NCBI GenBank assembly: GCA_049643885.1
Contig: JBARQV010000033.1
Span: 11,229 to 75,228, forward strand
Length of the DNA stretch: 64,000 bases
DNA from: Candidatus Omnitrophota bacterium
GTDB taxonomy: Bacteria; Omnitrophota; Gorgyraeia; Tantalellales; Tantalellaceae
Direction: 5' to 3'
Notes under the pieces: generated by a model
What the model was told of the DNA's origin: nothing
Databases searched by the model: none
What the model saw: only the letters and a program-made list of their open reading frames with translations
Position numbers and translations under genes: made by a program
Shown: positions 1 to 49,220 of the stretch, piece after piece
How the letters are laid out: each line of letters begins with the position of its first letter
Numbering within the stretch: the first letter of the stretch is position 1

Positions 1-7
1 GCAAGAA

Positions 8-3000
8 GTGGAAGTAGACGGCAAGCCGATGCAAATAACCCTGCCAAGCGAAGTGGGGAATCGAAAGGTCCTGAGCCATGAGATCTTCCCGGCATGGACC
101 GGCGGTTTCCATGTATCGTTCATTCTGGAAAAGACACCGGAGGACATAGAAAATCTCAATAAGGCAAGAGACGTATCCCTGGATAGGATCGGAGCAAAAA
201 TACGGGCGTTGGAAGAAATTCCTGAACAAGAGAGAACACCAGAAACGGAAACCGGGAGAATGCTGGAAGTCCTGAAAAAAGTTCAAGCCGACCTGAAAGC
301 ACGCGACATGAAAGACGTGAGAATTTTTGTCGCGGTTTCTCTTGAAGGAGAAAAACTCAATGCTCATATAATCAGTGGAGTTATAACGGTGCCTGTCGAT
401 CAGCTGGAGAGAACTGAGGTATTGGCATATTCTCTTGGACATGAATCGTCTCACCAGTTTGTCCCTGAAGTATACGAAATAGACGATCCGCAAGTAGAAG
501 AGGATAAAGTTATTGAAGTCGGCGTTGAAGTATTCGGTCCTATGATACAGGTATCCATTGCCCGGTCACCAGAGGGCGGATATGGGATAAACGTTACATC
601 CATAGATATTAATTTAAAAATGGATGACTCGAGGGCCGTGGAAGCGGTAAGAAACGCTTTTATCATGGCCTGGAACCAGCTTGAAGGACAGAAAGCACGC
701 GGCGAAGAGATAGATCCGGAATATGAAGATTTCGTCAGGGCAATGCTCGAAAGAGAAGGCCTGGAGCTGAAATATGAGGCGGCCCCGGGAGTTACGTTCC
801 TGATCGACGACGCCGGCATGCGGGTCCTGTCGGAAAGAACCCCGTTAATGGTGACCCAAGCTTTCCCGGTTGCCCTGGCGCGTGAGATGCTTGTCGCCGA
901 ATTGCCCGAAACCAGGCCAGTCGTTCTACAATCGCTTCTTGCGAATATCGCCAGCGGAAGGGGGATGTTTTCCTGGTTTTTGAGCCCGTTATTATGGTTA
1001 TTAACCATAGGCTCGACTCCGATTCATGAGTGGGCGCATATACAAGCAATCAGGAGATATGGCATAAGCCCTGAATTACTGTCCCCGGCCCAGAGACGTG
1101 GAGAGGATGTTGGAACTTTCTCACTAATATGGAGTCTTATCAAGGGCGAGGTCATAGTTCATAAAGCCCTTTCTGGAGTTGATGAAGCTCACATGGAGGT
1201 ACATGTAGCCGGAGTGAGAGCTAATCTTCGTGCATCTTTTTATTTTGGGATTTTACTGGGAGGTGCAATCGCTGCTTATCTTTCTCTGTCGCCTCTGGCA
1301 TTTTGGCCCATGGTCTTTTTGTCGTATCTTACAGCAATCAATTTCATATCCGTGGTGGTCGAATATTTTGGAAGAGGAGACTTGGCGATGATACTGCGAG
1401 AATCTAAATCTTCTGTTTTTGAACTAATCACCCGCAGGCCGCATCTGGAGGAGTCGATGTTAGAAAGATATTTTTATGGAGAAAAACGAAGACTTTCGAG
1501 GTTGGCGAAAAGAATGGGCGTAAATATCAAGGGATTTGAAGATGACATTGAAAAGATTCGTTACGAAGTCGCAAAAACGCAAGTAAGTTATGTTATAAAA
1601 TGGCGAGCGATTGACCAATCGTTATTAGGAGATTATACCACGCCACTATGGATAGCTGGTAAAAAAGATGAGATTTGGCAGAAAAGGTTTAATGAAATTG
1701 TTTCGTATCTACCCAGAGGCGCGCCAATATTTAACGAAATAAAAGATGATCAAGTGAAAGCAAAGATCATTGCAGAAGTTATTGGTGAAATAGAAGAAGC
1801 TGTGGGTGCCGCCCGGCTCTCGGAGCGCGAGGGATACTTCCACAGCGTTATTGGAATGGCTGATAGAAGCGGTTATTCTGAAATAATGCACGCACGGTGG
1901 GGGAAGGAAATCAATGACCTTTACTTAAAGGTGAAAAAGGACGTGGCAGAAAAGAGAAGGGAGAGAGGGGATTTAAGTTCAGGCTATGCTAAAGGGATGC
2001 TTATAAAAGAAGTATTTGATTCGATCCGCAGGAACGTTAAAGGCGACCTGAGGCAAGCCGAGAACTATGTTAAGTACCATTATGTGCTCGACATCAACCA
2101 GGTCCTCAGCGATAAAAAGGGTGTTTGCAGGCATATGGGAATAATAACGGCGATGATGTTAGAGAAACTCATTCAGCAAAAGGAACTTGATGGCCTTGCC
2201 TTCTATGTTCGCAGGGATTTTCACGCGTGGGCGATGTATGCAACAACTTACGGGGAACTCATTGTCCTGGATGCTGCCCAAAGTATCGATGGGGTTGTAG
2301 AGCAATTCGGCTATCTTGAAGATTTTGCAAGGGCGCAAGACCCATGGGCGGTTCTGAAATCTCCTGCAAGTAGCAACCGGGAAAGAAGAGCATGGGCACG
2401 TTGGTATGCGAAATATGGTAGGGATTCGGAAGATTTGATGCGAAATCCCACAGCTGTAAGGATGATTGTGGAGCGCGTGCAACGACAGGCTGCGCGAGAA
2501 AGAGCAGCAGAAGCAGAAGGCAGAAGAGATTATTACTATGGGACGGTCCTGACAAGTGGGATGGGGCCGGATCAATTGGGCAGGAAAGATATGTTTTATA
2601 TGCCCGCTGCGGTTTTGCAAGAAATTATACGGCAAGGTCCTATTGAGGAGGCTGCTCCTCAACGCGTTGAACCGGAAGATCTGGTCCGCGAGCTTGAACC
2701 TGTGGCCAGGGACGTGGCGGAAAGGTTCAGAAGGGAAGGGATTAGCCCGCAAATGTGGAATATGTACAGGAGAGAGCTTATGGCAAAAGGGCGTAGGCGC
2801 AGTGCCGTTTTCCGGAGGATACATAAGATAATCCTTGATTTCCATACATCCATTTTAATAAAGGAACAGTATAGCAGACCGGTAAGGCATGCTTATGTAC
2901 GAGACTCCGAAGCATTAAACATTGCGATTGACAGAGAACTGGCCACGGCGCGTGAGATGCTTGCCGCCGCGCCGCCAACCGTTGTGCCCGGTAAAGGTGT

Positions 3001-6000
3001 CCTCTGGTTTATCTCGGGGGCTATTTTCGGGCTTATGAACCTTTTGGGGATTACTATTACTCCGGCCAGAAAGGATTTTGTTGAAGATTTTATTATTCCT
3101 TTACTTGAAGAAGGCGGTATGCTCCTGGTGCTGTGTTATTGGGGGGCGTTGCCATATTTATTAGTAAGGCTTGGATTTGCAATTATGCATGCAAGACGAA
3201 GCTTGATAAAGGCAATACTGGGGCGCGTATTCTTAGGCAGGGCACCCCCTGTGGGGGAAAAACCGATTTCTCAGCAAGTCATTGAACAGTTAACCATCCC
3301 CGCCATCGCATCAGCCGCAGCTCTCCTGCCCCTTATAGCTTTAGCTTTTGGAGTACCATTAAGCCCGGCAATATTCGGATTCGTTGCTGGGACAGGGCTC
3401 TTTGCCCATATCCTCGGGAACCGCTATGTTACGGAATTCAAGTCCCGCCTGCAGAAAGCTGTTCTGGGAGAAGAGCTAGGCATAGATTATGAAGGCCGCC
3501 CTGCCGCCTTGGAAAAAGTAAAAACAGACTATGAAACCCTGATACGCCCCCTGACAAATATTCCCTTTGATGAACTGCCGGGTGCGACAAAAGAGATATT
3601 GTTCGGGGCTGGAGTGGACAACGGGTTGGTAGAAATGAGTAGATCGGCAGGCAGAAACGCGAGGGATCTATTCCGGTCCGGTTTTCCAGTTCTAAAGGAC
3701 GCCATTTTGGTCGAGGGAGATCCTGACAGGACAAGGGAGAATCTAATGGCTATAGCTTCCGGCCTTGTAAGGATAGGCGCCGCAAGCGAGTCGTTCGGCC
3801 ATGCCGATTATGTGTTCAGGCTGGGCTTGCCGAAGCTTATACAGGCCTTCGGCCCGGAACTGATAAGGGAGCAGTGGGAAACTTTCGTGTTATTTGGAGA
3901 AACTGCCGGCAAGAATGCGAGATATCTTTTTGGAGCGACCTTGCCGGCGTTCAGGGAAACTATAATCGTAGAGGGGGACGTCCAGAGGACCAGGCAAAAT
4001 TTGCTGGACATCGGGAACAGTATTTTAAGAGTTGTGCCGGAAAACGATGAAATAGCTGAGGAATTACTTAATAACGCCTTGCCTGCGGTGAGCGGTATTA
4101 TCATCGTCGAAGGCGACGCGGAAAAGGCCAAGGATAATTTAAACAGGATCGGAAGCAGTGTTTTAAGAGTTCTTGAGGCAGCAGGCGATAAAGTGCGGGG
4201 CCTGTTCAGGCACGATTATCCCAGGATAGAGGCCGGGCTTGGCGCTGAATTTGTAAAAACACATTGGGAAGGCATTTTCAGATTGGGCGAAGCCGCGGGA
4301 ACGGCCGCAGGCAATTTCTTCAAAAACGGGTTTGCCGGCTTCATCCAAAGCTTTGGTTTAGATTTCCTGGAGAACAACTGGCAGGATATCGTAAAACTGG
4401 GTGAGATCGCGGGTAAGCGTTCAGGCTATGATGTAGGGAATATCTTTAACCGCACATTGGTAGGGTTCGCAAAGATCTATGGACTCGAATTCGTAAAAGA
4501 CAATTGGCGAGATCTCATGGATATCGCCGGATCTACCGGCAAAGACGCCGCTTTTCTTTTGTCAAACGGGTTTTATAGTCTGGAAGAAGGATTCGGCGCT
4601 GATTTTATTAAAGCGCACTGGAAAGACCTTGTGGAATATATCAAAACGAACGGTGAATACGCACTGGAACTGGTCAAGGACGGCTTACCGTCCATGAAAG
4701 AAGCGATCGTAGTAGCGGGAGATGAAGCGGAAACGAGGCAAAATCTCCGAGCCGTGGGCGAGGCGCTTGCGTCTGTCGCCAGGGCCGCGGGGAAGCAAGA
4801 AGCGACGTACGTTTTCAGTCAGCATCTTCCCGATATTAAAAGGCGGTTCGGTAAGGAGTTTATAAGGGATTGCTGGAAGGACATGCTGGGTCTGGGCGCG
4901 AGCACCGGTAAGAATGTAAGATATTTCTTCAGATACGCGCTTTCCGAGTTCAGCAAGACGATCGTGGTAAAAGAGGACGTGGAAAAGACGCGTGAAAATC
5001 TCCGCGCCATAGGAAATGAGCTTGTAAAACTCAGCAATGCGGCGGGAGAACATGCGCTTGTAGTATTTGAGTACGGGATACCCGCCATGATAGGGGCGAT
5101 CGCGGTCGAAGGCAATGCAGAAGAAACTGCAAAAAATTTAGACATTATAGGAAGCGAACTTATAGCTTTGGCGCTGCTGGACGGCGAAGATGCCGGCAGA
5201 CTGTTCGAATATGGACTTCCGGCTCTCGAGAAAGTGCTTATAGTCGAACAGGATGCTGAAAAGACAAAAGAAAATCTTGCTAGTGCCGGAAAGGAGCTTT
5301 TTGAGCTTGCCGCAAAAGTTACAGGTGAGATGCGTATTTTTTGGCGAAGCATATTATGGTCCCAGGATGATATAGTTGCGGAAGGCGATTTCGCGCAAAC
5401 GATCGAAAATTTAAAGACTGTCGGAAAAGACCGCGTAGAATTCACCAATAACGCGGGTATGGGCGGAATTGCAGAAGATTTCTTTAAAACAGTTTTCAAT
5501 TTACGCTCACGCTTCGGACTGGATTTTCTGCCATGGCGTGATGTTATAAAATTCGGCAGAATACACTTTATTTATAATCTAAGCAACAAAGTGGGATGGG
5601 AATTTGTAAGGTCTTATTGGGGGGATTTAATAGAGATCGGTGCTGTCCTGGGGTACAAAACAGGAGAGATGTTCAATGAGGTACTTCCGGCGGTAAAATC
5701 CCTGGTTACTCCCGAAAGTATTCAGGATCTGGTCAGATGGGTGTCGTTAGGCGATCCTGTTGATACCGATATATTGAAGGAATTTCTGGCTTTATCCCGC
5801 GAAGAAAGGGCGGATTATTTTAATACCCGCGAGGATGAGCTGGCCAGAATACGCGATGGCAAATTCGACATAGCTGATCAAAAACACCTTTTTATCGGAT
5901 ACCGGCTTATTCTCGACGATATCCGAGACAATCCGACTGTAAAAAAAGACATAACATATAAAGAATATTTATCTTATGTAAAAGCCGGAAAGCCCGCCAA

Positions 6001-9000
6001 GGAAAGATTCCGTGAAAAAGACCGAGCGGAGCTTACCTACTTATGTTATGAAGCATTGAAACTCATGAATTTTATCAGAGAATTGAAAGCCAGAGCCGAT
6101 TCGCTGGGGAGACCACTTGTGTTGGTTGAGAATATTACGTACGGTTGGATGGCCACAATACCCATTGAAGAGGAGATCAAAGCCATGGGTGTAAAGATCA
6201 TAAAGACCAAAGCCGGATCGACCTTTGCTCACGATAATCCGACGGTTATGCACGGCTTGAATCCTCATGGCCCGGATGATTCCAAACTTTTTAGCGAAGA
6301 AGATCTGAGATATTTCGTAGAAGAACAGCCTTTGGTGTTGGTGGTGGACGGAACTTATTCGCTTGACCCGCAAAAAATGGCGCGTTTTAGAAGAAAAGGG
6401 GCACGATATCCAGATGCCCACCAGGCTTATCGTAATTATTTCCACGCCATAAGCGGAGAGCCTAAAGATAATGATTTTGATATCGATAGATTGCGACTTG
6501 GAAGCAAGCTTAAAGAAGATAATGTTTATAAGGCAGTAAGGAGAAGTGCCGAAGACATCAAGCCGGCGCCCGAAAGGGGTAATTACCAGATGAGATTCTG
6601 GTATCCGGGAAAGAAGTCACTTGGATTAAATAGCCAGAGAAAATCAAGAAAACTTTCAAGCCAATTAGATCTTATCAATTCTAAAAATACGGACGAACCT
6701 CTTTTAGATAAAATCAGCGGTCCGACATTAATTTTTTCTGTGGCTAACATGGAAGATGAGGCCATACCCGATAGTGTCAGGCAGGGGGGGATATATCATA
6801 ATTCCGCGCATTTTGACGACAAAGAACCCTTTGGGAGAACGTTTATTGATGTTACACCTTACGGTCCGAAGATCTCGAATGAATTTCAAAATGCAGCCAT
6901 CGCGGAATACAAGCGATTAAGCCAGCAATTAGGAGTTGTGCCGCCCCTTGCCCCGCCTGCCGTGATGGCGAGGGAAAGCCGCTGGGCCCAGTATGCGGCA
7001 CCTATGGCCGGCGGCGTTCTGGGTTTTCTCACGGTATTTTTATTCGGCTCGGCATTGTTGCCGGGCATATTGAGCGTCTTGCTTTTATCAGCGTATTTTC
7101 CGCTTGCGAGGCAAACGGCCCTGGCGCGTGAAGTTGCCGGTGAAACGGGCGTCGCCGCTAGGCCCGTGGATACGTTCGGGGATATTCTTGGCAACTTCGG
7201 GCCTATTATCGGTCCCTTGGTGTGGCTCCATGAATTTGTTCACCGCCTTACCGGCGTGTTGGGCGTAAAAAGGCTAGGCATATTTAGCAGATTTATGGAC
7301 GAGGCAATGGCTTATTCGGTCGAATCGGTATTCGCCATGCCTGTAGTTGCTGTTTCTTCGATCGTGTATGGGTTAGTCATGCTTTTCATGCCCCCCAGGG
7401 GCGAAGAAGCCCGCGCCCCGCCTGCCGAACCGGGGATAGATTTCGAGGGCGAGTGGTTGACTGTGCCCATGATCGCTGAACGTCTTGAAGAAGAGCCACA
7501 ACTTACAATTGCAATATGGGAAATGCTCACACCGGAACTTAGGAAAGCTGTTGAGAGCCTGCTTAGTGAAGAGAGGAAAAGGCTGGTTAAGATCCGACTT
7601 TTTATTTATGAACACCTGGCTGAACTCCAAAGCAAGGAAGTTTCGAGTGATCTCGAAGATAGAAAGAACAGCGCAAGTTTACTAGAGCGGCAAAGAAAAG
7701 TTTTTGAGATCGGACGAAAGGGATTTGAAGCTCATGGAGTAGAGCATGGTTTAAATGTTTTTCTACAGATCATGCTGGATGGGCTCATCCGGAATGAATT
7801 TAAGGGCCCGCTAAATATGGGACCAAAAGAGTTCTTTGCCGGTCCTTACGGACCGCATTATATCGTTCTTGATCCGCGCAGTGTCAAAAAACCGGGCTTC
7901 GAATGGCAAGAGAGGCAGAACCATTTATTATATCTTGTTCCAAACGGGTCGGACTACAGGTTACTAATAAGCTTGGTAGATAAAGCACGTGATGAAGGGA
8001 TCATTAAACCGGAAGACGCCGGATTCATAAAGAACAGGATAACGACTTATGACATGTTCATTGCAATGACTAAAGAGGTTTCTGTTCCGGAGGAAGTACC
8101 GGCTACAACAGCAGCTGTTGAGGTTCCTGTTGCAGAGGAAGCGGCTGTTACTACGGTATTTGTTGAGGCCCCTGCCATTGCGCCTGCTGAGGTTATACCC
8201 GAGGAAGAAGTTCTTCCCGAGGCGCAGAGGGTATACTCAGCGGCGAGGGATCTTATTCCGGTGCTCCTGGATCTTATAAGGAGAAATTCACCGACTTACC
8301 TTGTAGGGCCTTCTTTTCTGGAGGATCTGGCGAAAGATGAGGGACGCAACAGGAAGGTGGAAAGGGTACTGGGCAAGGAAGGCCACAGGATAGATGCCAG
8401 GTATTGCGGGTACGATCCGACGCGCGCGGATCCGGAAGAAGCCTGGTTTGAAGAACTTACAAAACCTGGTGGAATTCTTGACAGAGCACTCAAAAGGTTC
8501 GGTATAGACGTTGTGGAAAACCCAACGTCAAGAATGACCATAAGGCTTGTCAGGGGGGCGGATGAAGAAAGGAACCAGGACAGAAGAAGTAAATTAGAAG
8601 CGTTAATTGTGAAAAGGCTCATGGATATAAATCCTGTCTTGAGATCAATGCTTGAAACAATGAAAGAAGAAGATCGGAAAAACTGGTTAAGGCAGTACGT
8701 GAAGATAATAGATGTAGATGTCGAAGGTATCGAGCATGTGAATCCCGTGCTGGACCTCTTTGCCGATGCCGGGGCGATGGAGCTGGACAGGTACGAGAAA
8801 AAAGATTACAAGGACGAAGCCCCTGACGAGCTTAAGGAACGATTGGTCATACTGTTAAAGCTTTCCCTGGGCAGTCTGGTCGATTCAGAGAGAGGTGACA
8901 TACTCGAAGGCCTGACCGCGGGTAAGCTTTACGGGGTTTTAGAAAGGGTTTTTTCGGGGCTAGCGTATTTCGCGGTCAAAAGAATAGATTGGGAAAGTAT

Positions 9001-9046: not shown

Positions 9047-9060
9047 TGTGAGGTATAAAG

Positions 9061-19431: not shown

Positions 19432-19446
19432 TATAAGAGGTGTGTG

Positions 19447-26406: not shown

Positions 26407-26544
26407 TCTTACCCAACATTGTCGTTGTTAAATTTAAAAAAGTCAGAAATTTCTCTTGCGTTTTCTTCTTGCCCCATGTTATCGTATAGGAGTTAATATT
26501 ACAAAAAGCAAGTAGTATTAGTATATACTGGAGGAAAGTAAGAC

Positions 26545-29262: not shown

Positions 29263-29484
29263 TAGAGAAGTTAGTATTTCAAAAAGCAAGCTCAATTAAT
29301 TTGTATTCCTTATATATTAGGTGTAAACTAAAATTAGGGTACATATATCTAGCTTGGCGTATAGATAACCGTAAGCTTGGACTTAGGTTAGAGGATATGT
29401 CTGGTCTAGGTTGTGTGCCTTTTTTATAGGCTAAATAGTAAATAGTTTTGAAAAGTATTAATACAATTGTTTGCGAGGTGCGTC

Positions 29485-32400: not shown

Positions 32401-35400
32401 CGTGTCTGGACCTGGGACGCTGAAAGGAAGATGCCTGTTCCAGCGCCGGGGATCGGAGTCGTCAGATTGCCCAATGGGGAAAAGATAGATAAAAAATTGT
32501 ACGATCTGGCAAGGGCAAGAAATGCCGCGAAGGACGCGCAGGACCAGGGAGACGGAAGAAGCGCGATAATGGCGTTTAACGCGGCGAATAAATTGCGCGC
32601 CGAAACCGTTGAAATGCTGGAGAACGTCTCACCCGAAGCGAGGGAAAGGTTAGGGTTGCCTTCACCCGATGAATTGGCAGAAGAGGCACGAGAGGATCCC
32701 ATTGCCCAGTTAGAGGTCGGGGAGATCGGTGAGGGCGAGCTTGCCGCCGCTGAGGGGACCAGGCTTATAGAGAACATGTTCACGTTCGTTGACAGGACAG
32801 GACGGGCCAGGCCGATGTCCGCGGCGGAAGCGGAGAGAACAATAGGTGACTTGGATGTAATGATAGCTCTTATTGTCGCCGGCAATTCGGCCAAGGTTGA
32901 TCTGACAACGGCCGTGAACAATAATCTCGGGACAATGGATAGATACGTTGCGGAATTCGTTAACAGCATGGCCCATCCCAGCCGCCGCCAGGCGCGGTGG
33001 GCGGGGTTGAGATACACGGCGCGCGAGTCCTTTGCTAAACCCGAGCTTAACGCCCTCAGGGCGATGAAAATGATGCGGCAGCTGCTCCGGCAAAAACTGG
33101 AGCAACTCAAGGCGCAGGAAGTCCAGCGCGATAACGTGTCTTATAACACTTTTGTGGCCAGCACGAGCAGGGGGATATACCAGGCCCAGGAGCTTCTTGG
33201 ATATCTCGCGGCACAGGATGAACCGGCCGACGTGACGATCCAGGCAATAAGGCATATGAACCAGCGCGTAGGCCTTTTAAGGACGAATATAGAGGCTCTT
33301 TCTATTTTGCAAAGAAGAGTGGAGCAGAACCTGGGAGACGAAGAAAGGTCCAGGGAAATGGCCGCACAGTTGGGAGAACTGGAAAAAATGCTCGGCGAGA
33401 TGCAAAAGAGCCTGTCCATTTTCGTGATAAATCATGAAACTCAATTATCGTCGGCAATGAAAAATGAAGACGCGAAAGAAAGATTATCGGAACTTATACG
33501 CGGTCCGGAAGACGACAAGACAAAAGGCCTTTTGGGACAGCCGGTCGTAAAGCACCAGGAGATCATCGATCAAATCACCGACGCGGCCGCGGAGGGCAGG
33601 TCCGGAGCAGCCATACTGGACCCAAATCTCGCCCAGGTTAAAGACAATGAATTCACCGCGGCTGACGCCGAAGGCGGCGTTTTCTCGCAGATGCGTGATA
33701 CGATAATACGGGAGAGACACAACGGATTTGAGCCGGGAAGACCCGTGATGAGTGGGGAATTGTTGCTGGAGTTAAGGAACGCCATATTGGGCGTGAACCT
33801 TCTTATGCAGCAGGCAATGGGCATAAGGGAGGACGTTCCGTTCTCAGACGAAGAAAAGGCCCTCATGACCCTTGCCAGGAGATACGGTGAACGTTTGGCG
33901 GTCAGTATACATTCGCAGGGGATACGTCCGGCGGATACCGGATGGACAGGACTGCCGACAAGAGACCCCGCGTTTTTAAGGATGGCCCGCCTGATGTTGC
34001 AGAGGAAGATAGGGGACCTGATGCTGGAGGACGCCAATAATCTTATGGATCTTGTGGAAAAACAGCTCGAAAGAACGGAAAGAGGAGAATTAGCTCCTCC
34101 AACCAGAGGCCAAATGGCCGGTTTGGTCAGGGAACTGTACCGCGCCGACAGCGAGCTTGACCGTTTTATGGAATTAGGCGTGGTAGGGGAAGCCGGCAGG
34201 AACGCATTTACGGACAGGTTCGTCGCTTTCTGGAGAAGAGCGGAAGCGATAGATCCCAGGTACGGCAGCGATAACCTGGAGACTTTGCTGGAATGGGCGG
34301 AAAAAGCGGGTATGATCGACAGGATAGGGTTTCCTGCCAGGATCGGAGCTACCGCGGACAGGCTGCTTGATGAAACTGTCGAAGCCCTGCAGGAGAGGAT
34401 AGATGCCAGGCGGGATTTTGAAGCGGCTTTAGCCCGGGCTAAAAGAGAAATCCCATCAATGCGTTCGACCGAAGGACAACGGAGTTATCTTATAAGTATG
34501 ACCAGCAGGGCCCTTAACGAGGAATTGAACAAACCGGAAGACCAGAGGAGCTATGAAGATATAAACGAATTAAGAGCTGATCTAGCCCGGTACGAAGCGG
34601 AAAGGAACGAACTCCGCGCAAGGCGGCGCGCTCTCATGACGGAAGCCATTCTCGCGCTTACCGGCCGGAATATTGAAGCCGGGACGATACATGACAGCTG
34701 GCTGGACGTTGATCCTGTCAGGCTGGAGTCTGAAATAAGGTTTCTTCGTGATACCGCGGGAACGGACATTTACGCGCATAATTATACTATTTTCCAGCGG
34801 CGGTTCCGGGCGATCATGGACAAAAAAGATCTGATCAGGACGTTGAACGGACTTCTTCCTGGGACGGCAAGGCCTATTCCGATGGGGGCTGCCGAACTTA
34901 TTGCGAGCGCCAGGGCACTGGTGCGAAGAGCCATTGCCGCGTTGGTCGATAGCGGTGGGACCGCGCGGCAGGTCCTGGCGTTATTGGATGCAGGTACCGC
35001 GAATGCGAACACTGCGGTCGCCGGTTTAAGCGCGGCGGAGTTGAGTGACATGCTTGACGAACTGGAAGAACGCGGAGATGTTGTTTATGAGGATAAGAAC
35101 CTGGAGGCAGGCGGTATCAAGGACCGATTGGAACTGATAGGGCTGTTGAATATGCAGCTTCCCCGGGGCAGAAAGATCGCGACAAATATTGACAACCTGA
35201 CGATGGACAGGCGGGAATTGATAAGAACGGCGGTTAACGGGGCTGAGTCCGCGAGTAATATCTATTCTATATTACAAATGTCCCGCGATGAAGATATATC
35301 CTTGACCGCTTTGTCGGGTATAAAGGTTCAAATCGTAGGGCTGGGATTGGACGCGAACGGCCTGCGCGAGATCCTCAATGACATAGAAGCGTTAGGTTAC

Positions 35401-36831
35401 GATATTTACGGGGGAAGGATTGAAGGGGCCGAATTGTTCGGGCGTGATATGTTCGCGCTTCGTGATCAGGTACAGGCTTTGCAGGATTCATTGCGCGGGG
35501 TTGCCTGGGACCAGGCGGCGGGTCAGATCGGCCAGGAACTTGCGACCCCGGAGAACACTTTTCGCAGGAGACTAGCCGAGTCTATGGTACCTGCGATGAG
35601 AGGCATGGACAGGATGCTGATCCGTGACGATACGCTTCCGTCGATCATTTCCAGGCTTGAGCGGATGCCTCTATTCCGGTGGCAGCAGGCCTCGCGGGCC
35701 AGGTCCGCCAGGAAGACGCCCGAACAGGTACGGGGTGTAATAAAAGTGCTGGAATCATACCGCGACATATTCATGGGCAGGTCGGGCATGGTATCCGAAA
35801 GGCTGCAGCGCGCCTGGGACGGGTCCAATGAAGCGGCGTACAGGGAAGCGATGATAAGGATAGTCGAGGCTTCTGGAGAACTTGGCGATCCTTTACTTAA
35901 AAACGGTACATATGATCTCGCGGTAATAGACCAGGCGATAAAGACCGCCCAAACGCAGCTTAGGTTGAGCGAGGCTATAGCATCGCGCGCGGCCGAAGAA
36001 GGAAGGGCAGCCATGGGCGAAACTGTCATCAACATGAATCAGTTCGCCGAACAGATCGAGGAAGCGATGGGGACCCTGATGCAGCCCAATCTTCCCGGGA
36101 AGATGAGCGCCGGTGTTCCCGTCGGGACGCCGGAAGACGAGGTGAACTGGAGAAATGCCGTCAGGGCTAAATCCAAGATCAACAGTTTCTGCAAGACTGC
36201 GTTTGGTAAGGGAGTCGATACCCCGGCCCAGGCGGACGGGAACCAGATAGGTCTTTTCAGGATAGTCAGGGGCGATCCCATGGAGACGCTTACCGGGGAA
36301 CATGGTATGGCTCAAGACTGGCATAAGAGAGCCCGGGCCGGAGAGCCGTTTGTCGCGTATATTCCTGAGATGGAAGGCCTGCCGTCGAACATCGACAAAT
36401 TCCAGATCAGCAATTACAGGGATTTTGTGCTTGCGGTGATACAAATAAGAGCTAGCGCGGGACAGAAGATGTACCAGGACCTGCTGGATCTGATAAACGC
36501 CGGCGATATTATTCTTTTGCGTGACAGCTATTCGGATTGCACCGCGGGGCCTACGGTCGCGCCGCCGGAGATATTCAGGCGGTTTCTGGGTATGAGGAAG
36601 ATAGTCCATATAGAGGATACCGAAGAAGGGTCATCGGCCATGGCGTCGGCACTTACGGATTTTAAAAAATTCCTTATTCAGGCCTCACCAGACAGGGAAG
36701 CCGCAAGGAGAGCTCTTGAAGGCATGAATAATCTGACCGATATACTTAAGAATTACGTGATGCAGTGGAGCGTGGTCGAGAGAATAGGCCAGGAAATAGA
36801 AGCCTACATAGAAGTGGTCATATCCGTATAA
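29485..36831 (+). CDS. Giant protein (about 2448 aa) with signal peptide + conserved 'QDAHCN' module, second module shared with ORF at 19447, long helical/coiled C-terminal region
   Basis: ATG 29485 with GAGGTG RBS 5 nt upstream (in-frame TTG at 29467 possible); 7.3 kb uninterrupted ORF; clear paralogy of first about 500 aa to ORFs at 9061/19447/36881. Confidence 0.9.
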   Translation: MKNIWLKTISVVVALTFFLSMLPIDALAVEDPEGAPLPFAEGKGDEAAVFNPETFALPTQMGTVKDSWKGKTDKAVIHIQDAHCNYDAQKQISNIIEYLSGVYGVDTVNLEGGSGEYDLAVFTNILNKHVRQEVVDSFVHDGLVNGAEYFAATNPDKVKLWGIEKVDLYLQDLDVYRESLTYKEQVDRYIKSLTHILNNLKMHIFPKDLLEMDMKYTQYKTGELSFKDYLVFLLDKAKQMGIDIKGFANIFLLKQSLEQEGRIDFKLASRQREDLVKKLEASLSRKLIKELAGKMVAFHEKEISQYDFYEYLIEKAKMVNIDMKEYPELQKYVVYIALYHAVNKSKIVAELNSLEDSIKVSLFTNDDQRELDVLSKNLVLTKNMFNITMTKEDYEYYMKNRSSFDVRNYLSFIEKQALRFKITARPEQDIERLDGYREDIQKFFEISFKRDDAFMKNMKFSEQQGQGRKKMQIAIVMTGGFHTENLCELFRKKGISYVSVIPTFTNPKGYESPYFNLLGGKEAGLVEQFNEIFASMSALQVASMLNNALGSQVWGERNIRAFDAAAIVREAIARGIEVTDITTEAGNIIFRMADGTTETMAITKFWKIVGDVDIDAQMDALPENAFSDIIMERGQVQEIKNFLKEIGVPADAVDAYMDELFTGINPDTELNYLRFVEGVDFGGHPGGFGIRLNRKYGDAQGRLTREGMAKLVHEIVGGLYGNHLMAGKAESWFKQSARARRGKQLAEAPANSPLGKYGRPVWRLNFGERNSVERDFATRGEGEEEAAAAAEAVPGAAVEGARVAEVGMEFFTAAPEVGAVNEIAARIQTGDAASVVEQIDAVVLEINNRANLADTDAARDMLWAFLGSIFQNGAALQGLTFEGRSVREYALAAAGHALYTIDKNLGHVPEGVPVDRYSRAVWLDRLMNAAFKNQQAGPGYTNSVRGALRGAIKGILKGNTDLPVEAEDVAPVRVWTWDAERKMPVPAPGIGVVRLPNGEKIDKKLYDLARARNAAKDAQDQGDGRSAIMAFNAANKLRAETVEMLENVSPEARERLGLPSPDELAEEAREDPIAQLEVGEIGEGELAAAEGTRLIENMFTFVDRTGRARPMSAAEAERTIGDLDVMIALIVAGNSAKVDLTTAVNNNLGTMDRYVAEFVNSMAHPSRRQARWAGLRYTARESFAKPELNALRAMKMMRQLLRQKLEQLKAQEVQRDNVSYNTFVASTSRGIYQAQELLGYLAAQDEPADVTIQAIRHMNQRVGLLRTNIEALSILQRRVEQNLGDEERSREMAAQLGELEKMLGEMQKSLSIFVINHETQLSSAMKNEDAKERLSELIRGPEDDKTKGLLGQPVVKHQEIIDQITDAAAEGRSGAAILDPNLAQVKDNEFTAADAEGGVFSQMRDTIIRERHNGFEPGRPVMSGELLLELRNAILGVNLLMQQAMGIREDVPFSDEEKALMTLARRYGERLAVSIHSQGIRPADTGWTGLPTRDPAFLRMARLMLQRKIGDLMLEDANNLMDLVEKQLERTERGELAPPTRGQMAGLVRELYRADSELDRFMELGVVGEAGRNAFTDRFVAFWRRAEAIDPRYGSDNLETLLEWAEKAGMIDRIGFPARIGATADRLLDETVEALQERIDARRDFEAALARAKREIPSMRSTEGQRSYLISMTSRALNEELNKPEDQRSYEDINELRADLARYEAERNELRARRRALMTEAILALTGRNIEAGTIHDSWLDVDPVRLESEIRFLRDTAGTDIYAHNYTIFQRRFRAIMDKKDLIRTLNGLLPGTARPIPMGAAELIASARALVRRAIAALVDSGGTARQVLALLDAGTANANTAVAGLSAAELSDMLDELEERGDVVYEDKNLEAGGIKDRLELIGLLNMQLPRGRKIATNIDNLTMDRRELIRTAVNGAESASNIYSILQMSRDEDISLTALSGIKVQIVGLGLDANGLREILNDIEALGYDIYGGRIEGAELFGRDMFALRDQVQALQDSLRGVAWDQAAGQIGQELATPENTFRRRLAESMVPAMRGMDRMLIRDDTLPSIISRLERMPLFRWQQASRARSARKTPEQVRGVIKVLESYRDIFMGRSGMVSERLQRAWDGSNEAAYREAMIRIVEASGELGDPLLKNGTYDLAVIDQAIKTAQTQLRLSEAIASRAAEEGRAAMGETVINMNQFAEQIEEAMGTLMQPNLPGKMSAGVPVGTPEDEVNWRNAVRAKSKINSFCKTAFGKGVDTPAQADGNQIGLFRIVRGDPMETLTGEHGMAQDWHKRARAGEPFVAYIPEMEGLPSNIDKFQISNYRDFVLAVIQIRASAGQKMYQDLLDLINAGDIILLRDSYSDCTAGPTVAPPEIFRRFLGMRKIVHIEDTEEGSSAMASALTDFKKFLIQASPDREAARRALEGMNNLTDILKNYVMQWSVVERIGQEIEAYIEVVISV

Positions 36832-36880
36832 TCCTTTCTTCGGCTTTTACGGATGTTGGGATAGAAAAGGGGGTTTTGAG

Positions 36881-39800
36881 ATGAAAAAAATCACAACCAT
36901 TGTGGTTTTTTTTATGTTTCTCGCTTGTTTCGTCCTCACGGACGCCCGGTCCGTGGTGGATATAGACGCTCCCTATGATGTGCCGGAAGTCGGTGAACTG
37001 CAGCTTGCGCGCCTGGATGTTGATACATTTACCATTCCCGCGCATCTTGGCGAGATCAAATATAAGTTTAAAGGAGATCCCCGCAAGGTTGTCATCCATA
37101 TCCAGGACGCCCACTGCAACCATTTCGCGCAAAAAAAGATCGCCGATATTATCGACTACCTGAACCGTGAATACGGCATAAAGACGGTCAACCTTGAAGG
37201 CGGCGTGGAAGAGTATGACCTTTCCGTGTTCACCTCCATTACCGGCAAAGCCATAAGGCAGGAGGTCGCCAACCATTTCCTCAAGAAAGGCGAGATAAAC
37301 GGGGCGGAATTCTTCGCCGTGAATAATCCCGATAAGGTGCAGCTCTGGGGCGTCGAGGACAAGGACCTGTATCTTGCTAATCTGAAAGTCTACAGGGATT
37401 CCCTTGCGCATAAAGAAGAGGTTGACGAATACATGAAGGGGATCACTCACGTGATAAATAATCTCAAACTGCATATCTACGACGGTGAACTCCTTAAGAT
37501 GGACATGAATTACAACGCTTACAAGGAAAAGAACATGCAGTTCCGTGAATATCTGGAATTTCTGCTTAAAAAAGCGCAGTTCCATGAAATCGATATGACG
37601 AAGTATCAAAATTTGAATCTTCTCGAAAAATCGATCGAACAGGAAGAGGCTATAGACTTCGAGACGGCAAGCAACGAAAGGAAGACCCTTATCGATGAAC
37701 TTAAGAAGAACGTCTCGAAGGCCGACTTGCGGAATATCGTGCAGATGACCGTCGACTACAAGACAAAGAGGATCACGCCGAAAGCTTTTTATACGTATCT
37801 TCTCGACAAGGCAAAGGATGAAGGGATAGACGTAAATAGGTTCCCGGTCCTTGCCGGTTATATAGAATATGTCTCCACCTTTGAATCCGTCGACCGTTTC
37901 AAAATAATGAAGGAACTGGATGACATGGAAGCGGAGATAAAAAAAGACATCTACCAGAACAATACGCAGAAAGAACTCGATACGCTTTCCCGCAACCTGG
38001 TCATCATGAAAAATATTTTCGATATCCGCCTGAATAAGACGGATTACGATTATTACCTGGAAAATGAGGATTCTTTTGATGCCATTAATTTTCTCGAGTT
38101 CATCGACAGGGAAGCCCCGAGATACAGGATCACGGCACGGCCGGATCCGGAAGTCACAAGGTTGGACGTATACAGGGAAGACCTCTCCCAGTTCTTTGAG
38201 TTTTCCTTTCAAAGGGACGAGGTCTTCCTCAGGAACATGAAGTACAGCCGTGTCGCCGACGGCATCCAGGCGGCTATACTGATGACCGGCGGTTTCCATA
38301 CCGAGAACCTGTGCGTGCTTTTACAGGAAGATAATATCTCATATGTCTCCATTCTCCCCAGGTTCACCATGGACAGGGGTTATGTGAGCCCTTATTTTGA
38401 TATCCTTGCGGGGGATTCGACGGGCATACAGGAAGTTTTGCGCTCTGTCTTTGCACAACAGGCCGCGATGCTGCAGGTGCCTGCGAAGATGTCGCCGAAA
38501 ATAGCGGGATTTGTTTTCTCGGCGACGGAATTGGCGGCGTTCAGGGCATCAGTCCAGCTGACGGCCATGATGTTGATGGAAGCTGGAGATAGGGGGATGC
38601 AGACGGGCCAGGTAATGAAAGTCCCCATAGTGGACGAAGAGGACAGGGAGCAGGCTGCGATATACGCGAGGGTGACCATGAGAGAAGGCAGGGCTGTGGG
38701 AATAGATCTGGTTGAAGAAGAAGTAACTCCCGATGTTGAGATGAAAGTGACGATAGACGAACTCAACGAGCTTTCCCTGCCAAGACCCGCCGCTCCCAGG
38801 GTGCCGGAAGGCGCTGCCGTCGCGGAAGGCAGGCGGGGGCTCAAAGAAGACAGGTATCCCAGGTCCGAGGAGTCTTTAAGGGAAATGGTCAGGACGGGAG
38901 AGGCCCGGCTTGCCGAGGACGTGGACCTGGCCGCGGTGAAGGCAGGGGCGAACGAAGTTCTCCGTGGTGAGATAGGCGCCGAGCTTGCTTCTCTCATTGA
39001 GGACCTCAGGGGAAAGAATCCGGATGATACGGTAATGCTTGGAAAGGTGATCGGGCGAAGAGATATGAGAAGGCCTTATACGGTGAAGGACGTCCTGGAC
39101 AGGCTCCGCGGGAGAGGTTTCACGATAAGCGAAGATGATCCTATCGGCGACCTCGAGGAATTACAGAGAAGAATAGCCGCGGCCGAGATGGGAGATGTAA
39201 GGTTTTACACGGCTTCCCTCGGAGATACAATATACGCGCAAAGCTACAGGGACGAGGCCGGCGTCACGCATATCATTCTCAATTCCGACAGAGGCATCGC
39301 TGGGAAATATCTAAGAGACCGGGAAGTATTGGCCAGGCTCGGCGCGCATGAAAGGCTGGAAGCGGACAAAGCGAACCTGGGCCTTGATCACGCCATGGTC
39401 GAGCACCTGGAGGTCATCGCGAACGGTTACAGCGGCATGACGCCGTTAAGCGGATTTATTCTGGATAAAGAAGTGGCGAGATTTGAAGACCTTGATGATA
39501 TAGGCGAAATACATGACAGCGACCCGGATGGGAGCTTTTATATGGGAAATTACCTGCAGAGGCAAATATATCTTGCAAGAGACATGCTGGGGCACACCGA
39601 TCCGAAAGGCCCTCCCGTGGATGAGATCCTGGAGATCTCCGAGGAAGAGATGCTAAGGATAAGACCCCAGTATGAAAGGATAGGCAACGCAGCGGGAAGA
39701 TACTTCACGTTGACTTACGGGCCGCGGCTCAGGCTTCACCTGTGCGTGACCGGGCAGGCGGCGGCGGTACGTGAAGAGATAGCGGGAAGCAAGGATTTCC

Positions 39801-40192
39801 GGAAAGCCGCGGATGACGGTCTGAACCCGCAGATCTTTATTTTCGCGCATGAAGGTATCTCGAATGCAGATATTAACGCTTTAAGGGCGGCTGACGGCGT
39901 TGCCGGAGCCATAAAGTTCGGCAGGGTGGATCCTGCCAACCCGCTTGAGGTCGACCTGATCGCGCTACTTGGAGCTGACCTGGTCCAGGCGATCAGGAAT
40001 AAGGATGAAGAACTGGCCAGGACAGCGGGAGCGTTGATGGAATACATGTCGGGCGGCCTGGTCGAAGTGAGGAACCTGGAGGACCTGAAAAAATTCATGG
40101 AGCAATATGAAATCTTTAAGATAAAAGCGATAGATTACGGGGAAATAACCGAGTTTGCCAAGTCTCGGATGGAGGTACTCCGCTCCCTCTAA
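36881..40192 (+). CDS. Large protein (1103 aa) with signal peptide + conserved 'QDAHCN' module and a unique C-terminal half ending in the family C-terminal tail (...EVLRSL)
   Basis: ATG 36881 with AAAGGGGG RBS; 3.3 kb ORF; N-module paralogy; followed by intrinsic terminator. Confidence 0.9.
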   Translation: MKKITTIVVFFMFLACFVLTDARSVVDIDAPYDVPEVGELQLARLDVDTFTIPAHLGEIKYKFKGDPRKVVIHIQDAHCNHFAQKKIADIIDYLNREYGIKTVNLEGGVEEYDLSVFTSITGKAIRQEVANHFLKKGEINGAEFFAVNNPDKVQLWGVEDKDLYLANLKVYRDSLAHKEEVDEYMKGITHVINNLKLHIYDGELLKMDMNYNAYKEKNMQFREYLEFLLKKAQFHEIDMTKYQNLNLLEKSIEQEEAIDFETASNERKTLIDELKKNVSKADLRNIVQMTVDYKTKRITPKAFYTYLLDKAKDEGIDVNRFPVLAGYIEYVSTFESVDRFKIMKELDDMEAEIKKDIYQNNTQKELDTLSRNLVIMKNIFDIRLNKTDYDYYLENEDSFDAINFLEFIDREAPRYRITARPDPEVTRLDVYREDLSQFFEFSFQRDEVFLRNMKYSRVADGIQAAILMTGGFHTENLCVLLQEDNISYVSILPRFTMDRGYVSPYFDILAGDSTGIQEVLRSVFAQQAAMLQVPAKMSPKIAGFVFSATELAAFRASVQLTAMMLMEAGDRGMQTGQVMKVPIVDEEDREQAAIYARVTMREGRAVGIDLVEEEVTPDVEMKVTIDELNELSLPRPAAPRVPEGAAVAEGRRGLKEDRYPRSEESLREMVRTGEARLAEDVDLAAVKAGANEVLRGEIGAELASLIEDLRGKNPDDTVMLGKVIGRRDMRRPYTVKDVLDRLRGRGFTISEDDPIGDLEELQRRIAAAEMGDVRFYTASLGDTIYAQSYRDEAGVTHIILNSDRGIAGKYLRDREVLARLGAHERLEADKANLGLDHAMVEHLEVIANGYSGMTPLSGFILDKEVARFEDLDDIGEIHDSDPDGSFYMGNYLQRQIYLARDMLGHTDPKGPPVDEILEISEEEMLRIRPQYERIGNAAGRYFTLTYGPRLRLHLCVTGQAAAVREEIAGSKDFRKAADDGLNPQIFIFAHEGISNADINALRAADGVAGAIKFGRVDPANPLEVDLIALLGADLVQAIRNKDEELARTAGALMEYMSGGLVEVRNLEDLKKFMEQYEIFKIKAIDYGEITEFAKSRMEVLRSL

Positions 40193-40702: not shown

Positions 40703-41034
40703 AAATTCTTAACGCTTTTCCGTCATTTTAAGCTGACATGGCAAAACTCGCCCCTCGCTATAGGAATGCTCGGGGCTCGGACAGTTGCCATGCCTACGCA
40801 TGTTTAATAGCCGTGACAACTTCAGCTTAAAATATCCGGAAAAGCTGAATTTTTGAATGATCCGTCAGGCATGCATTCGCCGTTATATGATTTTATTGTT
40901 TTTGCAGAACTAATTTTCGCGCCCCTCTGCCACTTTGACACTTTTATGATGTAGTTGCCCAATTTATTGGGCAAACCATCGAGCAAGAATAGTTGCTCGA
41001 TAAATCGAGCAACTACATATATAATGGTTTTAAT

Positions 41035-41973
41035 ATGAAATACAGGAAAATCGCGAATACAGATCTCGAAGTCTCGTCCATATGTCTGGGCACGTGGGCG
41101 TTCGGCGGCGATTGCTGGGGAGAGGCGGATGACGCCCAGTCGATCCGCGTCATCGAAGAAGCCGTCGATAAAGGCATCAATTTTATCGATACCGCGCCGA
41201 TCTACGGCAGCGGCCGTTCGGAAGAAGTAGTGGGTAAAGCGATAAAAAATAAAGCAGGCGTTATTATCGCCACGAAATGCGGGCTTGAACAAAAAGGCAA
41301 ATCGATCAGGCCCAATCTGCATGCAGATTTCATAAGAAAAGAAGCGGAAGGATCTTTGCGCCGTCTTGGGGTGGAGACGATAGACCTCTACCAGTGCCAC
41401 TGGCCGGATCCCAATACATCCATGAAAGAGACTTTCGGTGAAATGGATAAGCTCGTCCGGGAAGGGAAAATAAAGTACATAGGTGTTTCAAATTTTGAAA
41501 AAGGCGTCCTTGAGAGATCCATGCGCGCGGCACCCATTGTAAGTGATCAGGTCGAGTATTCTCTTTTTAAAAGAAAGATCGAAGAAGAGCTCATGCCGTT
41601 TTGCGGAGAAAATAAAGTTTCAGTTCTCACGTACGGACCCTTGGGCGGGGGAATTTTGACGGGGAAATACAAAACGCCCCCGACGTTTCCAAAAGGAGAT
41701 GTCAGGAACTTTTTCTATACTTTTTATAAAGAACCTTTCTGGAGCAAGGCGAAGGCGCTTGTTTCAGTCCTTGAAGAGCTTGCCGCGAAGAGACAGTGCC
41801 CGGTATCGGATATCGCTATTAATTGGGTTTTAAGCCACGCAGCTGTAACAAGTTGCATTGTCGGGTGCAGGACGCCCGAACAGCTCCGTCAGAATATCAC
41901 TGCCGCGGATTGGGAGCTGAGTGCGGATGAATTGGCTAAGATCCAAGGGGAGTATCAAAAAGTTTTTGGGTAG
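41035..41973 (+). CDS. Aldo/keto reductase family oxidoreductase
   Basis: MKYRKIANTDLEVSSICLGTWAFGG..., IDTAPIYG, LYQCHWPD, typical AKR motifs; in-frame upstream extension to 40993 is probably not used. Confidence 0.85.
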   Translation: MKYRKIANTDLEVSSICLGTWAFGGDCWGEADDAQSIRVIEEAVDKGINFIDTAPIYGSGRSEEVVGKAIKNKAGVIIATKCGLEQKGKSIRPNLHADFIRKEAEGSLRRLGVETIDLYQCHWPDPNTSMKETFGEMDKLVREGKIKYIGVSNFEKGVLERSMRAAPIVSDQVEYSLFKRKIEEELMPFCGENKVSVLTYGPLGGGILTGKYKTPPTFPKGDVRNFFYTFYKEPFWSKAKALVSVLEELAAKRQCPVSDIAINWVLSHAAVTSCIVGCRTPEQLRQNITAADWELSADELAKIQGEYQKVFG

Positions 41974-41977
41974 GTTA

Positions 41978-42136
41978 TCGTGAGGTAGGATATCAGGGGA
42001 TTGGGAAATCAGGGGGAAGAATATCAGGGGATTAGGGCATCAGGAACACCTGATATCCTGGTTCTCTGATTACCTGTCCCCTGATAACCGGATGCCCCGA
42101 TAATCTACCTCCCGATTCCCTAATATTCTGATATCC
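41978..42136. repeat. Long imperfect palindrome built from GATATCAGGG / CCCTGATATC units between convergent genes; probable bidirectional terminator/structured repeat
   Basis: Left arm has repeated ATATCAGGGG units, right arm has complementary CCCTGATA / CCCGATTCCC units; located between the AKR stop (41973) and GH1 stop (42142). Confidence 0.6.
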
Positions 42137-42141
42137 CTTCT

Positions 42142-43600: not shown

Positions 43601-43649
43601 GCCTTCGGCGATGGAAGAGCACCATATTTCCATATTAATCAAAAATAAG

Positions 43650-45435: not shown

Positions 45436-45475
45436 TCCCTTCCGGGGAGGCGTCGCTCCGATTGTAAGTTTAGGA

Positions 45476-49218: not shown

Positions 49219-49220
49219 TT

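Follow-up and report, generated by a model that had tools for sequence, protein, structure and literature searches.

Proteins of 10-147 thousand residues are documented in the Omnitrophota (10.1101/2023.11.21.568195; 10.64898/2026.06.07.730766), bacteria which have been described as host-dependent and in some cases as predatory (PMC10066038). Giant genes are a hallmark of this phylum and of other ultra-small, host-dependent bacteria; according to published surveys they are poorly conserved and mostly unannotated, which blocked experiments. Note that the existing catalogues of Omnitrophota giants (West-Roberts et al. 2023; Nielsen & Lui 2026; Seymour et al. 2023) start at 10,000 amino acids (aa) or 20 kb, whereas the longest protein of the locus considered here has 3957 aa. 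This locus is located in a stretch of 64,000 nucleotides (nt) of contig JBARQV010000033.1 from a Candidatus Omnitrophota bacterium; the whole stretch was analysed and is named the window in the following. The locus comprises six consecutive genes, G1 to G6, and is a genuine chromosomal array. G2, G3, G5, and G6 are members of a multigene family of mosaic proteins, so far found only in Omnitrophota, in which a signal peptide, a conserved N-terminal module (N-module, or head), a centre of variable content, and a conserved C-terminal domain (tail) follow each other. G1 probably belongs to this family as well: its tail is present, and its head probably lies upstream of the window, where the sequence that was compared ends 629 codons short of the G1 start. 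The anatomy of the family is well supported.

A first-pass annotation of this DNA had reported six consecutive giant open reading frames (ORFs) on the same strand with a high coding density. This layout was confirmed, as about 98.9% of the array region is coding and the gaps between the genes measure only 12-222 nt (in order from G1 to G6: 14, 12, 138, 204-222, and 49 nt). All genes and modules of the array are located on the plus strand. G1 (2-9046), whose frame is open from the start of the window, represents the last 3014 codons of a gene of 3957 aa; this full length is seen in the NCBI and ENA contigs that are identical to the window. G2 (9061-19431; 3456 aa) consists of a signal peptide, the N-module, two CPBP (CAAX protease and bacteriocin-processing) modules, a kinase, a GNAT domain, and the C-terminal domain. 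G3 (19444-26406; 2320 aa) contains a signal peptide, the N-module, a centre without Pfam match, a module named X, and the C-terminal domain. In G4 (26545-29262; 905 aa), an N-terminal hydrophobic helix is combined with a C-terminal tail of a second class; an N-module is lacking. G5 (29485-36831; 2448 aa from the ATG) has a signal peptide, the N-module, a centre without Pfam match, and a divergent C-terminus. G6 (36881-40192; 1103 aa), which is the shortest complete family member in the window, consists of a signal peptide, the head, a centre of about 330 aa, and the C-terminal domain. All five complete ORFs (G2 to G6) open with a stretch rich in lysine and arginine followed by a hydrophobic helix; a hydrophobic signal or anchor at this place had been stated in the annotation. 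Its claim that each complete ORF possesses a ribosome-binding site of its own holds for G2, G3, G4, and G6, which are preceded by purine-rich sites of the GAGG/GGAGG type; for G5 it holds only if translation starts at ATG 29485 (2448 aa) and not at TTG 29467 (2454 aa). Public assemblies call G5 from ATG 29485, too.

Paralogous repeats can be joined erroneously in metagenome assembly, and the long ORFs might for this reason be chimeras or sequencing artefacts. The annotation had named misassembly as a point to be checked, and a comparison with public assemblies revealed no artefact. Identity extends over positions 1-29431 of the window in the NCBI assembly GCA_049644745.1 (contig JBARSM010000028.1, 146 kb) and in ENA ERZ23498717 (56 kb), and over positions 3029-29431 in one contig from run SRR28062511. 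For G2 to G6, not a single mismatch is seen over 8.5-22.7 kb in the separate assemblies that exist of SRR28062511, SRR7066494, SRR28062501, and SRR28062509, and a near-equal contig from SRR28062510 also contains G2. Altogether, the mismatch-free stretches extend over 8.5-29.4 kb in at least six separate assemblies, which were obtained from different runs and with different pipelines. Paralogous DNA segments within the array share 60-82% identity, which is too low for mis-joining; some of the frames are uninterrupted over as much as 10.4 kb, and each array head shares 51-63% identity with proteins encoded in other genomes. Judged from these comparisons, misassembly of the array is unlikely, and to regard the ORFs as chimeras or artefacts would be extremely far-fetched.

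The heads are preceded by what appears to be an export signal. Among 246 family proteins with enough upstream sequence, a hydrophobic core is located directly before the head in 237 cases; 235 of the 246 have a lysine or arginine before this core, and 140 have an AxA motif after it (typically …DAWA|A). This corresponds to the n-h-c layout of Sec signal peptides. By its sequence, the N-terminus of the family thus resembles a Sec-type signal peptide, and the AxA sites suggest that it is cleaved. Signal peptides and topology were judged by means of a simple hydropathy scan and not with a trained predictor. The N-module itself spans positions 9322-10920 in G2, 19606-21168 in G3, and 29629-31266 in G5, as determined by BLASTP and alignment, and positions 37013-38590 in G6. 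That four proteins share this module, as the annotation had proposed, is evident from pairwise BLASTP comparisons of G2, G3, G5, and G6 (41-47% identity over 506-807 aligned residues, E 1e-132 to 0); in a MAFFT alignment, G2, G3, and G5 are 38%, 44%, and 44% identical to G6.

An AlphaFold2 model of the G6 head, which is about 520 aa long, was based on an alignment of 47 sequences and reached a mean predicted local distance difference test (pLDDT) of 86.6 and a predicted template modelling score of 0.81. In the model, a core of beta-strands and alpha-helices (aa ~55-160 and 460-510) is split by an all-helical insertion of about 300 aa (about fourteen helices, aa ~160-455). The predicted core is a parallel beta-sheet with flanking helices, which can be superposed on solved members of the TIKI/TraB/ChaN/EreA superfamily; at the sequence level, the conserved His/Glu set of this superfamily, GxxH…E…GxxH, is matched by the head motif. 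Five residues do not vary among 84 aligned family members, namely D76, H78, E106, R445, and H473 (G6 numbering), and the second histidine is embedded in G470-G-F-H473, which is likewise invariant in the 84 sequences. The corresponding set in RRSP, a member of the superfamily, is E3900-x-H3902, E3930, R4001, and H4030 (PMC6254334). The spacing of 28 residues between H78 and E106 is that of RRSP (H3902 to E3930), the spacing between R445 and H473 is 28 as compared to 29 residues (R4001 to H4030), and D76 occupies the place of the first glutamate, E3900. On the grounds of its predicted fold and its motif, and not by sequence membership, the head can be considered TIKI-like.

For the tail, a profile of about 200 residues was built iteratively on the family sequences gathered in this analysis. 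It detects the C-terminal domain in G1 (8264-9043; E 1e-34), G2 (18646-19428; E 1e-39), G3 (25696-26403; E 8e-20), and G6 (39575-40189; E 2e-39); G1 ends with …KRIDWESIRDRIDAENEVIRSL at the stop codon and G6 with …KAIDYGEITEFAKSRMEVLRSL. The C-terminal domain of G1 is 47% identical to the C-terminus of G2. The annotation had assigned a common tail to five proteins; the four named here retain it, whereas the profile scores G4 only 0.04 and G5 only 0.39. By BLAST, the end of G5 weakly resembles the C-termini found in two family members (5e-4). The model of full-length G6 (pLDDT 71.8) has a centre (aa 575-900) of poor prediction quality, whereas residues ~905-1100 form a beta-alpha-beta-alpha domain with block means of mostly 70-87 over residues ~905-1080; confidence is lower around residues 930-950 and after 1080. 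The model points to a Rossmann-like domain of about 200 aa with an alpha/beta/alpha fold.

A word-indexed homologue search with the C-terminal domain of G2 returned only this sequence itself. A profile of 28 sequences compared with 1.84 billion representative proteins gave 353 clusters, 99 of them at E <= 1e-30. In nearly all of the 150 matches listed, the domain ends at the last or next-to-last residue of the protein and never more than two residues short of it. Strong conservation is limited to one nearly invariant arginine and to the terminal motif I.KIDW..I..W..A…VL.SL, which is contained in the last ~25 residues and ends exactly at the C-terminus. Proteins bearing this domain reach 7165 aa. 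The head follows straight after the signal peptide in 52 of the 82 new matches with at least 800 aa; many of the remaining headless ones have no N-terminus resembling a signal peptide and look 5'-truncated.

The spread of the family was deduced from further searches. With G6, 217 homologues were found at E <= 1e-3, and the following statements on names and domains refer to the best 120 of these. For all of them the named source is Omnitrophota or Omnitrophica, which bears out the link to this phylum made in the annotation, and Pfam assigns no domain to the shared N-terminal region. A scan of one genome per species gave no fewer than 536 relatives, frequently with several in the same genome. 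Their records are titled Omnitrophota with the exception of co-assembly bins: many contigs of 'binchicken' metagenome-assembled genomes carrying the family (among the relatives' loci L004-L007, L011, L013, L015, and others) are titled 'uncultured Planctomycetia'. These titles may be default labels, as in every other respect the contigs match Omnitrophota relatives. In 78 relatives' loci, the N-module is without exception N-terminal; the ORFs concerned range in length from 900 to over 3900 aa, and the C-terminal tail invariably extends to the stop codon. Family members span roughly 0.8-7.2 thousand aa; the longest one seen is that of 7165 aa. The heads of the array are more similar to the above-mentioned proteins of other genomes than to those of their array neighbours; consequently, the genes are old paralogues and not the result of a recent amplification. 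Diversification of the family presumably occurred by module shuffling combined with gene gain and loss at hot spots.

The centres, which vary in size from 0.1 to more than 6 thousand residues within the family, carry the enzymes. In agreement with the annotation, conserved N- and C-terminal parts surround variable, enzyme-bearing centres, and the shared modules are undescribed in that they have no match in Pfam and NCBIfam. When whole proteins were scanned with these two libraries, most of their 15,000 residues remained without a match; sequence searches of G1, G3, and G5 against the PDB gave nothing, nor did a homologue search with residues 1-700 of G1. Most of the G3 and G5 centres have no relatives among about 100 family proteins, and one family member of 4666 aa has no Pfam match whatever. 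The annotation had named RHS, NRPS/PKS, and adhesins as ordinary families to which the ORFs might belong; Pfam finds no such domain in G1 to G7 at E <= 0.01, nor in G1, G3, and G5 at E <= 10.

Two of the enzymes proposed in the annotation are clearly recognized in G2, namely a Hanks-type Ser/Thr kinase (15592-16296; aa 2178-2412; PF00069, E 3.9e-24, 85.9 bits, cut-off 31.7) and a GNAT acetyltransferase (17677-17919; aa 2873-2953; PF00583, E 7.2e-9, 36.4 bits, cut-off 20.7). Evidence for the proposed transglutaminase-like core of G1 (2006-2278; aa 667-757) is divided: the Cys/His/Asp motif GVCRHMG…HAW…LD is present and the isolated segment matches DUF553 at E 2e-4 (21.2 bits, cut-off 20.5), but the whole protein reaches only 15.5 bits, and the match to Transglut_core (E 0.02) is below the cut-off. 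A transglutaminase-like cysteine-protease core in G1 is thus marginally supported by its sequence. The proposed HExxH motif occurs three times in G1, twice as part of a conserved module of the type HExVH…DExxAY that is flanked by membrane helices. These are module 1 (890-1393; HEWAH), which is a weaker paralogue lacking a Pfam match, and module 2 (6941-7408; HEFVH…DEAMAY). The pattern FG…V..HE.VH…DE..AY was found in ten matched stretches of eight proteins; neither the module nor its homologues belong to a family in Pfam. A nucleotidyltransferase, which had also been claimed, was not recovered, since no protein has such a match in Pfam or NCBIfam at E <= 0.01. What comes nearest is a faint hint of an NTPase in G4 (19.5 bits, cut-off 156).

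CPBP modules, a type of Rce1-like intramembrane protease module of about 160 aa with some four helices, are located once in G1 (2975-3478; aa 990-1157) and twice in G2 (12484-12960, aa 1142-1300; 14815-15261, aa 1919-2067); identity between the G1 module and those of G2 amounts to 37-42%. In 24 homologous modules, EE and HxxxN are invariant and FxxxH is nearly so (>=90%), many have the full EExxxR, and 12 of the 24 match PF02517 (Rce1-like/CPBP; best E 1e-5). The copies in the window lack the arginine of motif 1 and have no significant Pfam match themselves; their membership is consequently based on transitive homology. The G2 copies share 78% DNA identity over 267 nt (12691-12957 and 14992-15258), which is the closest copy-to-copy identity among the array repeats longer than 100 nt; at the sequence level this points to an internal duplication of the module within one gene.

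Modules also change their position. Module X (about 200 aa, no assigned fold) occurs in G3 (24916-25629) and in that part of G1 which lies upstream of the window. Elsewhere in the family it either directly follows the head or directly precedes the C-terminal domain, and its position in G1 matches that following the N-module in family protein P0004. G1 and its closest relative, a protein of locus L005, have their modules in different orders. One family protein of 4720 aa combines four kinase domains with a metallophosphatase, and a syntenic relative (L001) carries PEP-utilising domains.

As to function, we tentatively favour, at slightly less than an even chance, the assumption that the array proteins are exported, hydrolase-headed payload proteins with a shared docking or sorting tail. 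In such a mechanism, the proteins would cross the inner membrane via Sec. The head, by analogy with Tiki, PrgY, and ChaN, would be a hydrolase (peptidase or esterase) working outside the cytoplasm. Tiki, PrgY, and ChaN act on the outer face of a membrane. The invariant C-terminal domain would provide a common docking or sorting module, and the variable centre would be the payload, whose ATP- or acetyl-CoA-dependent enzymes and several types of protease would work at or within the envelope or the cytoplasm of a partner cell, which could be a host or prey. The hydropathy scan is consistent with this mechanism: no hydrophobic segment follows the signal peptide in G3, G5, and G6, none is located between head and kinase in the kinase-bearing proteins P0041 and L015, and the two homologous modules of about four helices between head and kinase of G2 add up to an even helix count. 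Therefore, head, cargo, and tail are expected to reside on the same, exported side. Enzymes that depend on ATP or acetyl-CoA would make sense on this side if they acted in another cell. Several observations weigh against payload proteins of this kind. The topology argument rests on a simple hydropathy scan, and the membrane-helix clusters of G1 and G2 would keep these proteins in the inner membrane of the producer. Outside the cytoplasm, it is not obvious how kinase, GNAT, and PEP-utilising domains would obtain their substrates, unless these domains were brought into another cell. A Foldseek search of the PDB with the head model gave no significant match, Ere-family entries ranking second, fourth, and sixth at E 0.06-0.25; PDB searches with the profile of the full N-module or of the core alone, from which the helical insertion had been removed, found nothing; and among 21 excised head cores Pfam detected no TraB, ChaN, or Ere domain (PF01963, PF04187, PF05139) at E <= 10. 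In addition, neither type 2 or type 4 secretion genes nor pilus genes were identified by Pfam in the window, which includes about 24 kb downstream of the array, and the flanks consist of metabolic genes downstream in the window and an RND (resistance-nodulation-division) efflux operon upstream in a relative.

The lack of secretion genes nearby would suit proteins that serve the producer itself. The helices would then anchor the proteins in the inner membrane of the producer, the head would sense or process something in the periplasm, the enzymes would work in the producer's cytoplasm, and the giants would be very large receptors or regulators and envelope-maintenance proteins instead of payloads. 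Internal hydrophobic clusters exist in G1, G2, and most family members of more than 2000 aa, and Hanks kinases with a sensor outside and the kinase inside are a standard bacterial design. In topology surveys, 94% of the long Omnitrophota proteins were membrane-targeted and many were read as anchored in the inner membrane (10.64898/2026.06.07.730766). However, head and cargo are placed on the same side by the hydropathy of G3, G5, G6, P0041, and L015, G2's two membrane modules have an even helix count, and the AxA sites argue for cleavage of the signal peptide; we rate a self-directed role, which is the main alternative, as rather unlikely, albeit worth serious attention. A different proposal, compatible with either location, is that the giants are polyprotein precursors cut into separate enzymes by their own proteases, namely the TIKI-like head, the CPBP and HExxH modules, and the transglutaminase-like core, head and tail serving processing and quality control. 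Each member has one invariant hydrolase-like head, G1 alone has four further protease-like modules, and the modules are autonomous and shuffled; yet the usual substrates of CPBP and TIKI enzymes are other proteins, and we consider polyproteins improbable. By analogy with type 9 secretion, but with unrelated components, head and tail might also constitute an unrecognised export and delivery system of the Omnitrophota, in which the signal peptide would lead the protein through the inner membrane, a dedicated machinery would read the C-terminal domain with its fixed end motif for outer-membrane passage or surface attachment, and the head would free or activate kinase, acetyltransferase, and protease payloads that act inside prey or host; this is rather a long shot. 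Finally, the annotation had seen the logic of polymorphic toxins or of MARTX toxins in the conserved ends around a variable enzyme-bearing centre, and the fold superfamily of the head does include RRSP, HopBA1, and the Pasteurella toxin PMT. But the variable part is central and the C-terminus is conserved, the intergenic gaps hold no ORF and leave no room for immunity genes, and Pfam finds no trafficking domain and no C80/CPD, RHS, LXG, PT-TG, or other known toxin domain in the array proteins (Peptidase_C80 included). RTX-like repeats are lacking too, as only two trivial tandem repeats and no repeat Pfam matches were found in the 40 kb, and a Sec signal peptide replaces the type 1 secretion design; the sole link to MARTX is one of fold, namely the membership of RRSP in the head's superfamily. 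Hence, toxins of either classical type are very improbable, and this part of the annotation was not sustained. If the payload proteins favoured here were real, the family would supply candidate effectors of bacterial predation or parasitism.

The surroundings of the array indicate a hot spot. Downstream lies a syntenic anchor block (40993-51334, genes on both strands, assigned by Pfam) with the order aldo-keto reductase, GH1 (minus strand), an unknown protein of 529 aa, FabG, FabF, acyl-CoA dehydrogenase, EtfB, and EtfA-Fer4; SMC comes next. The same block follows family genes of 1548, 2297, and 671 aa in L001 (the relative with the efflux operon), a single family gene of 1263 aa adjoining an IS66 transposase in L086, and genes of >= 915, 2384 (with kinase), 1744, and 904 aa in L088. 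Since the block is found behind arrays of one to four genes, the site is a conserved hot spot of variable copy number. Some family genes are solitary and surrounded by housekeeping genes (L087). In L086, positions 7625-9417, which directly precede its only family gene at the hot spot, hold a gene with a DruA domain and the transposase of the IS66 family, which hints at a contribution of mobile elements to the turnover of the hot spot. In at least eleven other genomes, an ORF of 399-406 aa ends about 100-700 nt upstream of an N-module gene (L042, L044, L046, L049 (~1.8 kb before), L051, L053, L057, L059, L062, L071, L081), and many of these N-module genes encode 3,000-3,900 aa or more. In L046 and L071 the short ORFs are EtfA-Fer4 proteins like that of window positions 50123-51334, and the others are alike in length and C-terminal sequence. 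Consequently, family genes flank the fab/etf block on either side across genomes. The unknown ORF of 529 aa (43846-45435, plus strand), for which only a sub-threshold beta-propeller hint exists, has positional counterparts in L086 (515 aa) and L088 (520 aa), both without Pfam match. In L088, a gene with an AbiEii toxin domain (21615-22277) is located between the GH1 gene and the unknown gene of about 520 aa.

G4, which has no match above cut-off in Pfam and NCBIfam, belongs to a companion family with a 'class 2' tail of its own. In L034 and L011, N-module genes are directly followed by full-length homologues of G4 (30% identity); L036 has a truncated homologue (26% identity). G4 ends with …IEDLQDIYNKQKNLLAAA; the pattern of the companion family is …IP.A.P.D…L..IY……L..A. 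Proteins of about 1300 aa with a class 2 tail are encoded directly upstream of N-module genes of about 3400 aa in L033 (5851-9765) and L025 (5880-9767). Residues 223-335 of the former have a near-threshold Pfam match to Rce1-like proteins (E 7e-4), residues 224-335 of the latter match the CPBP module profile (E 5e-6), and the companion family uses CPBP modules as well. An iterative-profile match (E ~1e-22) between residues ~718-809 of G4 (window ~28700-28970) and residues ~228-320 of EtfA was discarded as possible profile drift; it may reflect a shared Rossmann-like fold or such drift, and Pfam gives no link.

The seventh giant gene that had been announced downstream is present. G7 (plus strand) opens after a stop at 56867, extends from 56870 to the end of the window, runs off it, and encodes at least 2376 aa. 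Its sequence in the window contains no N-module and has no relatives among about 100 family proteins compared. G7 starts with a signal peptide ending AWA|YP and has a Walker A motif (GDPGTGKT) at aa 230, a weak HD-domain match (aa 473-575, E 1e-3), and several clusters of membrane helices. Both GC skew and AT skew have positive values in almost all 2-kb segments of positions 1-64000, and the cumulative GC skew climbs without a turn. The giant genes contain many long antisense ORFs such as 36818-38299 (493 aa), which are probably by-products of the purine-rich coding strand. A scan of the region 25.5-41.5 kb for promoters and terminators gave counts equal to chance and was uninformative on operon structure.

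What sets the family apart from the giant genes surveyed so far is a conserved head to which a structure can be assigned and in which five invariant residues are candidates for catalysis, together with a conserved C-terminal domain that closes with a fixed motif; head and tail alike recur across hundreds of protein clusters. It offers small, expressible domains for hydrolase and binding-partner tests, a sequence signature in the form of head and tail by which it can be followed across genomes, and, with the hot spot, a defined system for studying the gain, loss, and shuffling of such genes. The family is therefore a concrete handle on the role of the giant proteins of Omnitrophota.

Compared with the catalogued Omnitrophota giants (archaeovorins, dockerin-type proteins, and 'multi-enzyme metabolic clusters'), several features are shared: signal peptides and/or membrane helices, a mosaic multi-enzyme content including GNAT and HD domains, mostly uncharted sequence, and variable loci. 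Kinase and phosphotransferase content has likewise been reported for the largest Omnitrophota giant. SecA-DEAD, dockerin, and TSP3 domains were not found by Pfam in the array proteins, and a defined conserved head and tail is a feature of the present family that is not described in those papers. Given the proteins of 10-147 thousand residues documented in the phylum, the array proteins are mid-sized; the annotation had called their size extreme, which is a relative matter.

The CPBP modules of G1 and G2 have kept, as a module family, the motifs EE(xxxR), FxxxH, and HxxxN of the Rce1-like/Abi proteins. These are usually stand-alone enzymes with about eight helices, whereas here modules of about four helices occur up to three times in one giant protein. 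Substrates of type 9 secretion offer an analogy in their logic, as a Sec signal, a variable cargo, and a C-terminal domain at the very end follow each other; the type 9 domain of the Bacteroidota is, however, a beta-sandwich of about 80 aa, in contrast to the predicted alpha/beta, Rossmann-like domain of about 200 aa found here.

The closest relationship of the head is that to the superfamily of TIKI, TraB, PrgY, ChaN, and erythromycin esterases, to which the MARTX effector RRSP, HopBA1, and the C-terminal region of PMT belong, too. The D-x-H…E…R…H set of the head matches the set of two histidines, two glutamates, and an arginine in RRSP. The head deviates in having an aspartate for the first glutamate, the helical insertion of about 300 aa, no sequence-profile match, and only non-significant Foldseek hits; moreover, it is fused to thousands of residues and a fixed C-terminal domain. 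A paper connecting Omnitrophota proteins with the TIKI/TraB fold was not found. The likeness to MARTX toxins consists in conserved ends around exchangeable enzyme domains and in the fold superfamily which the head shares with RRSP. MARTX toxins are characterized by RTX repeats, an inositol-phosphate-activated C80 protease, and type 1 secretion, whereas the array proteins possess a putative Sec signal peptide instead. In MARTX toxins the TIKI-like domain is one of the exchangeable effectors, whereas in the present family it is the constant part.

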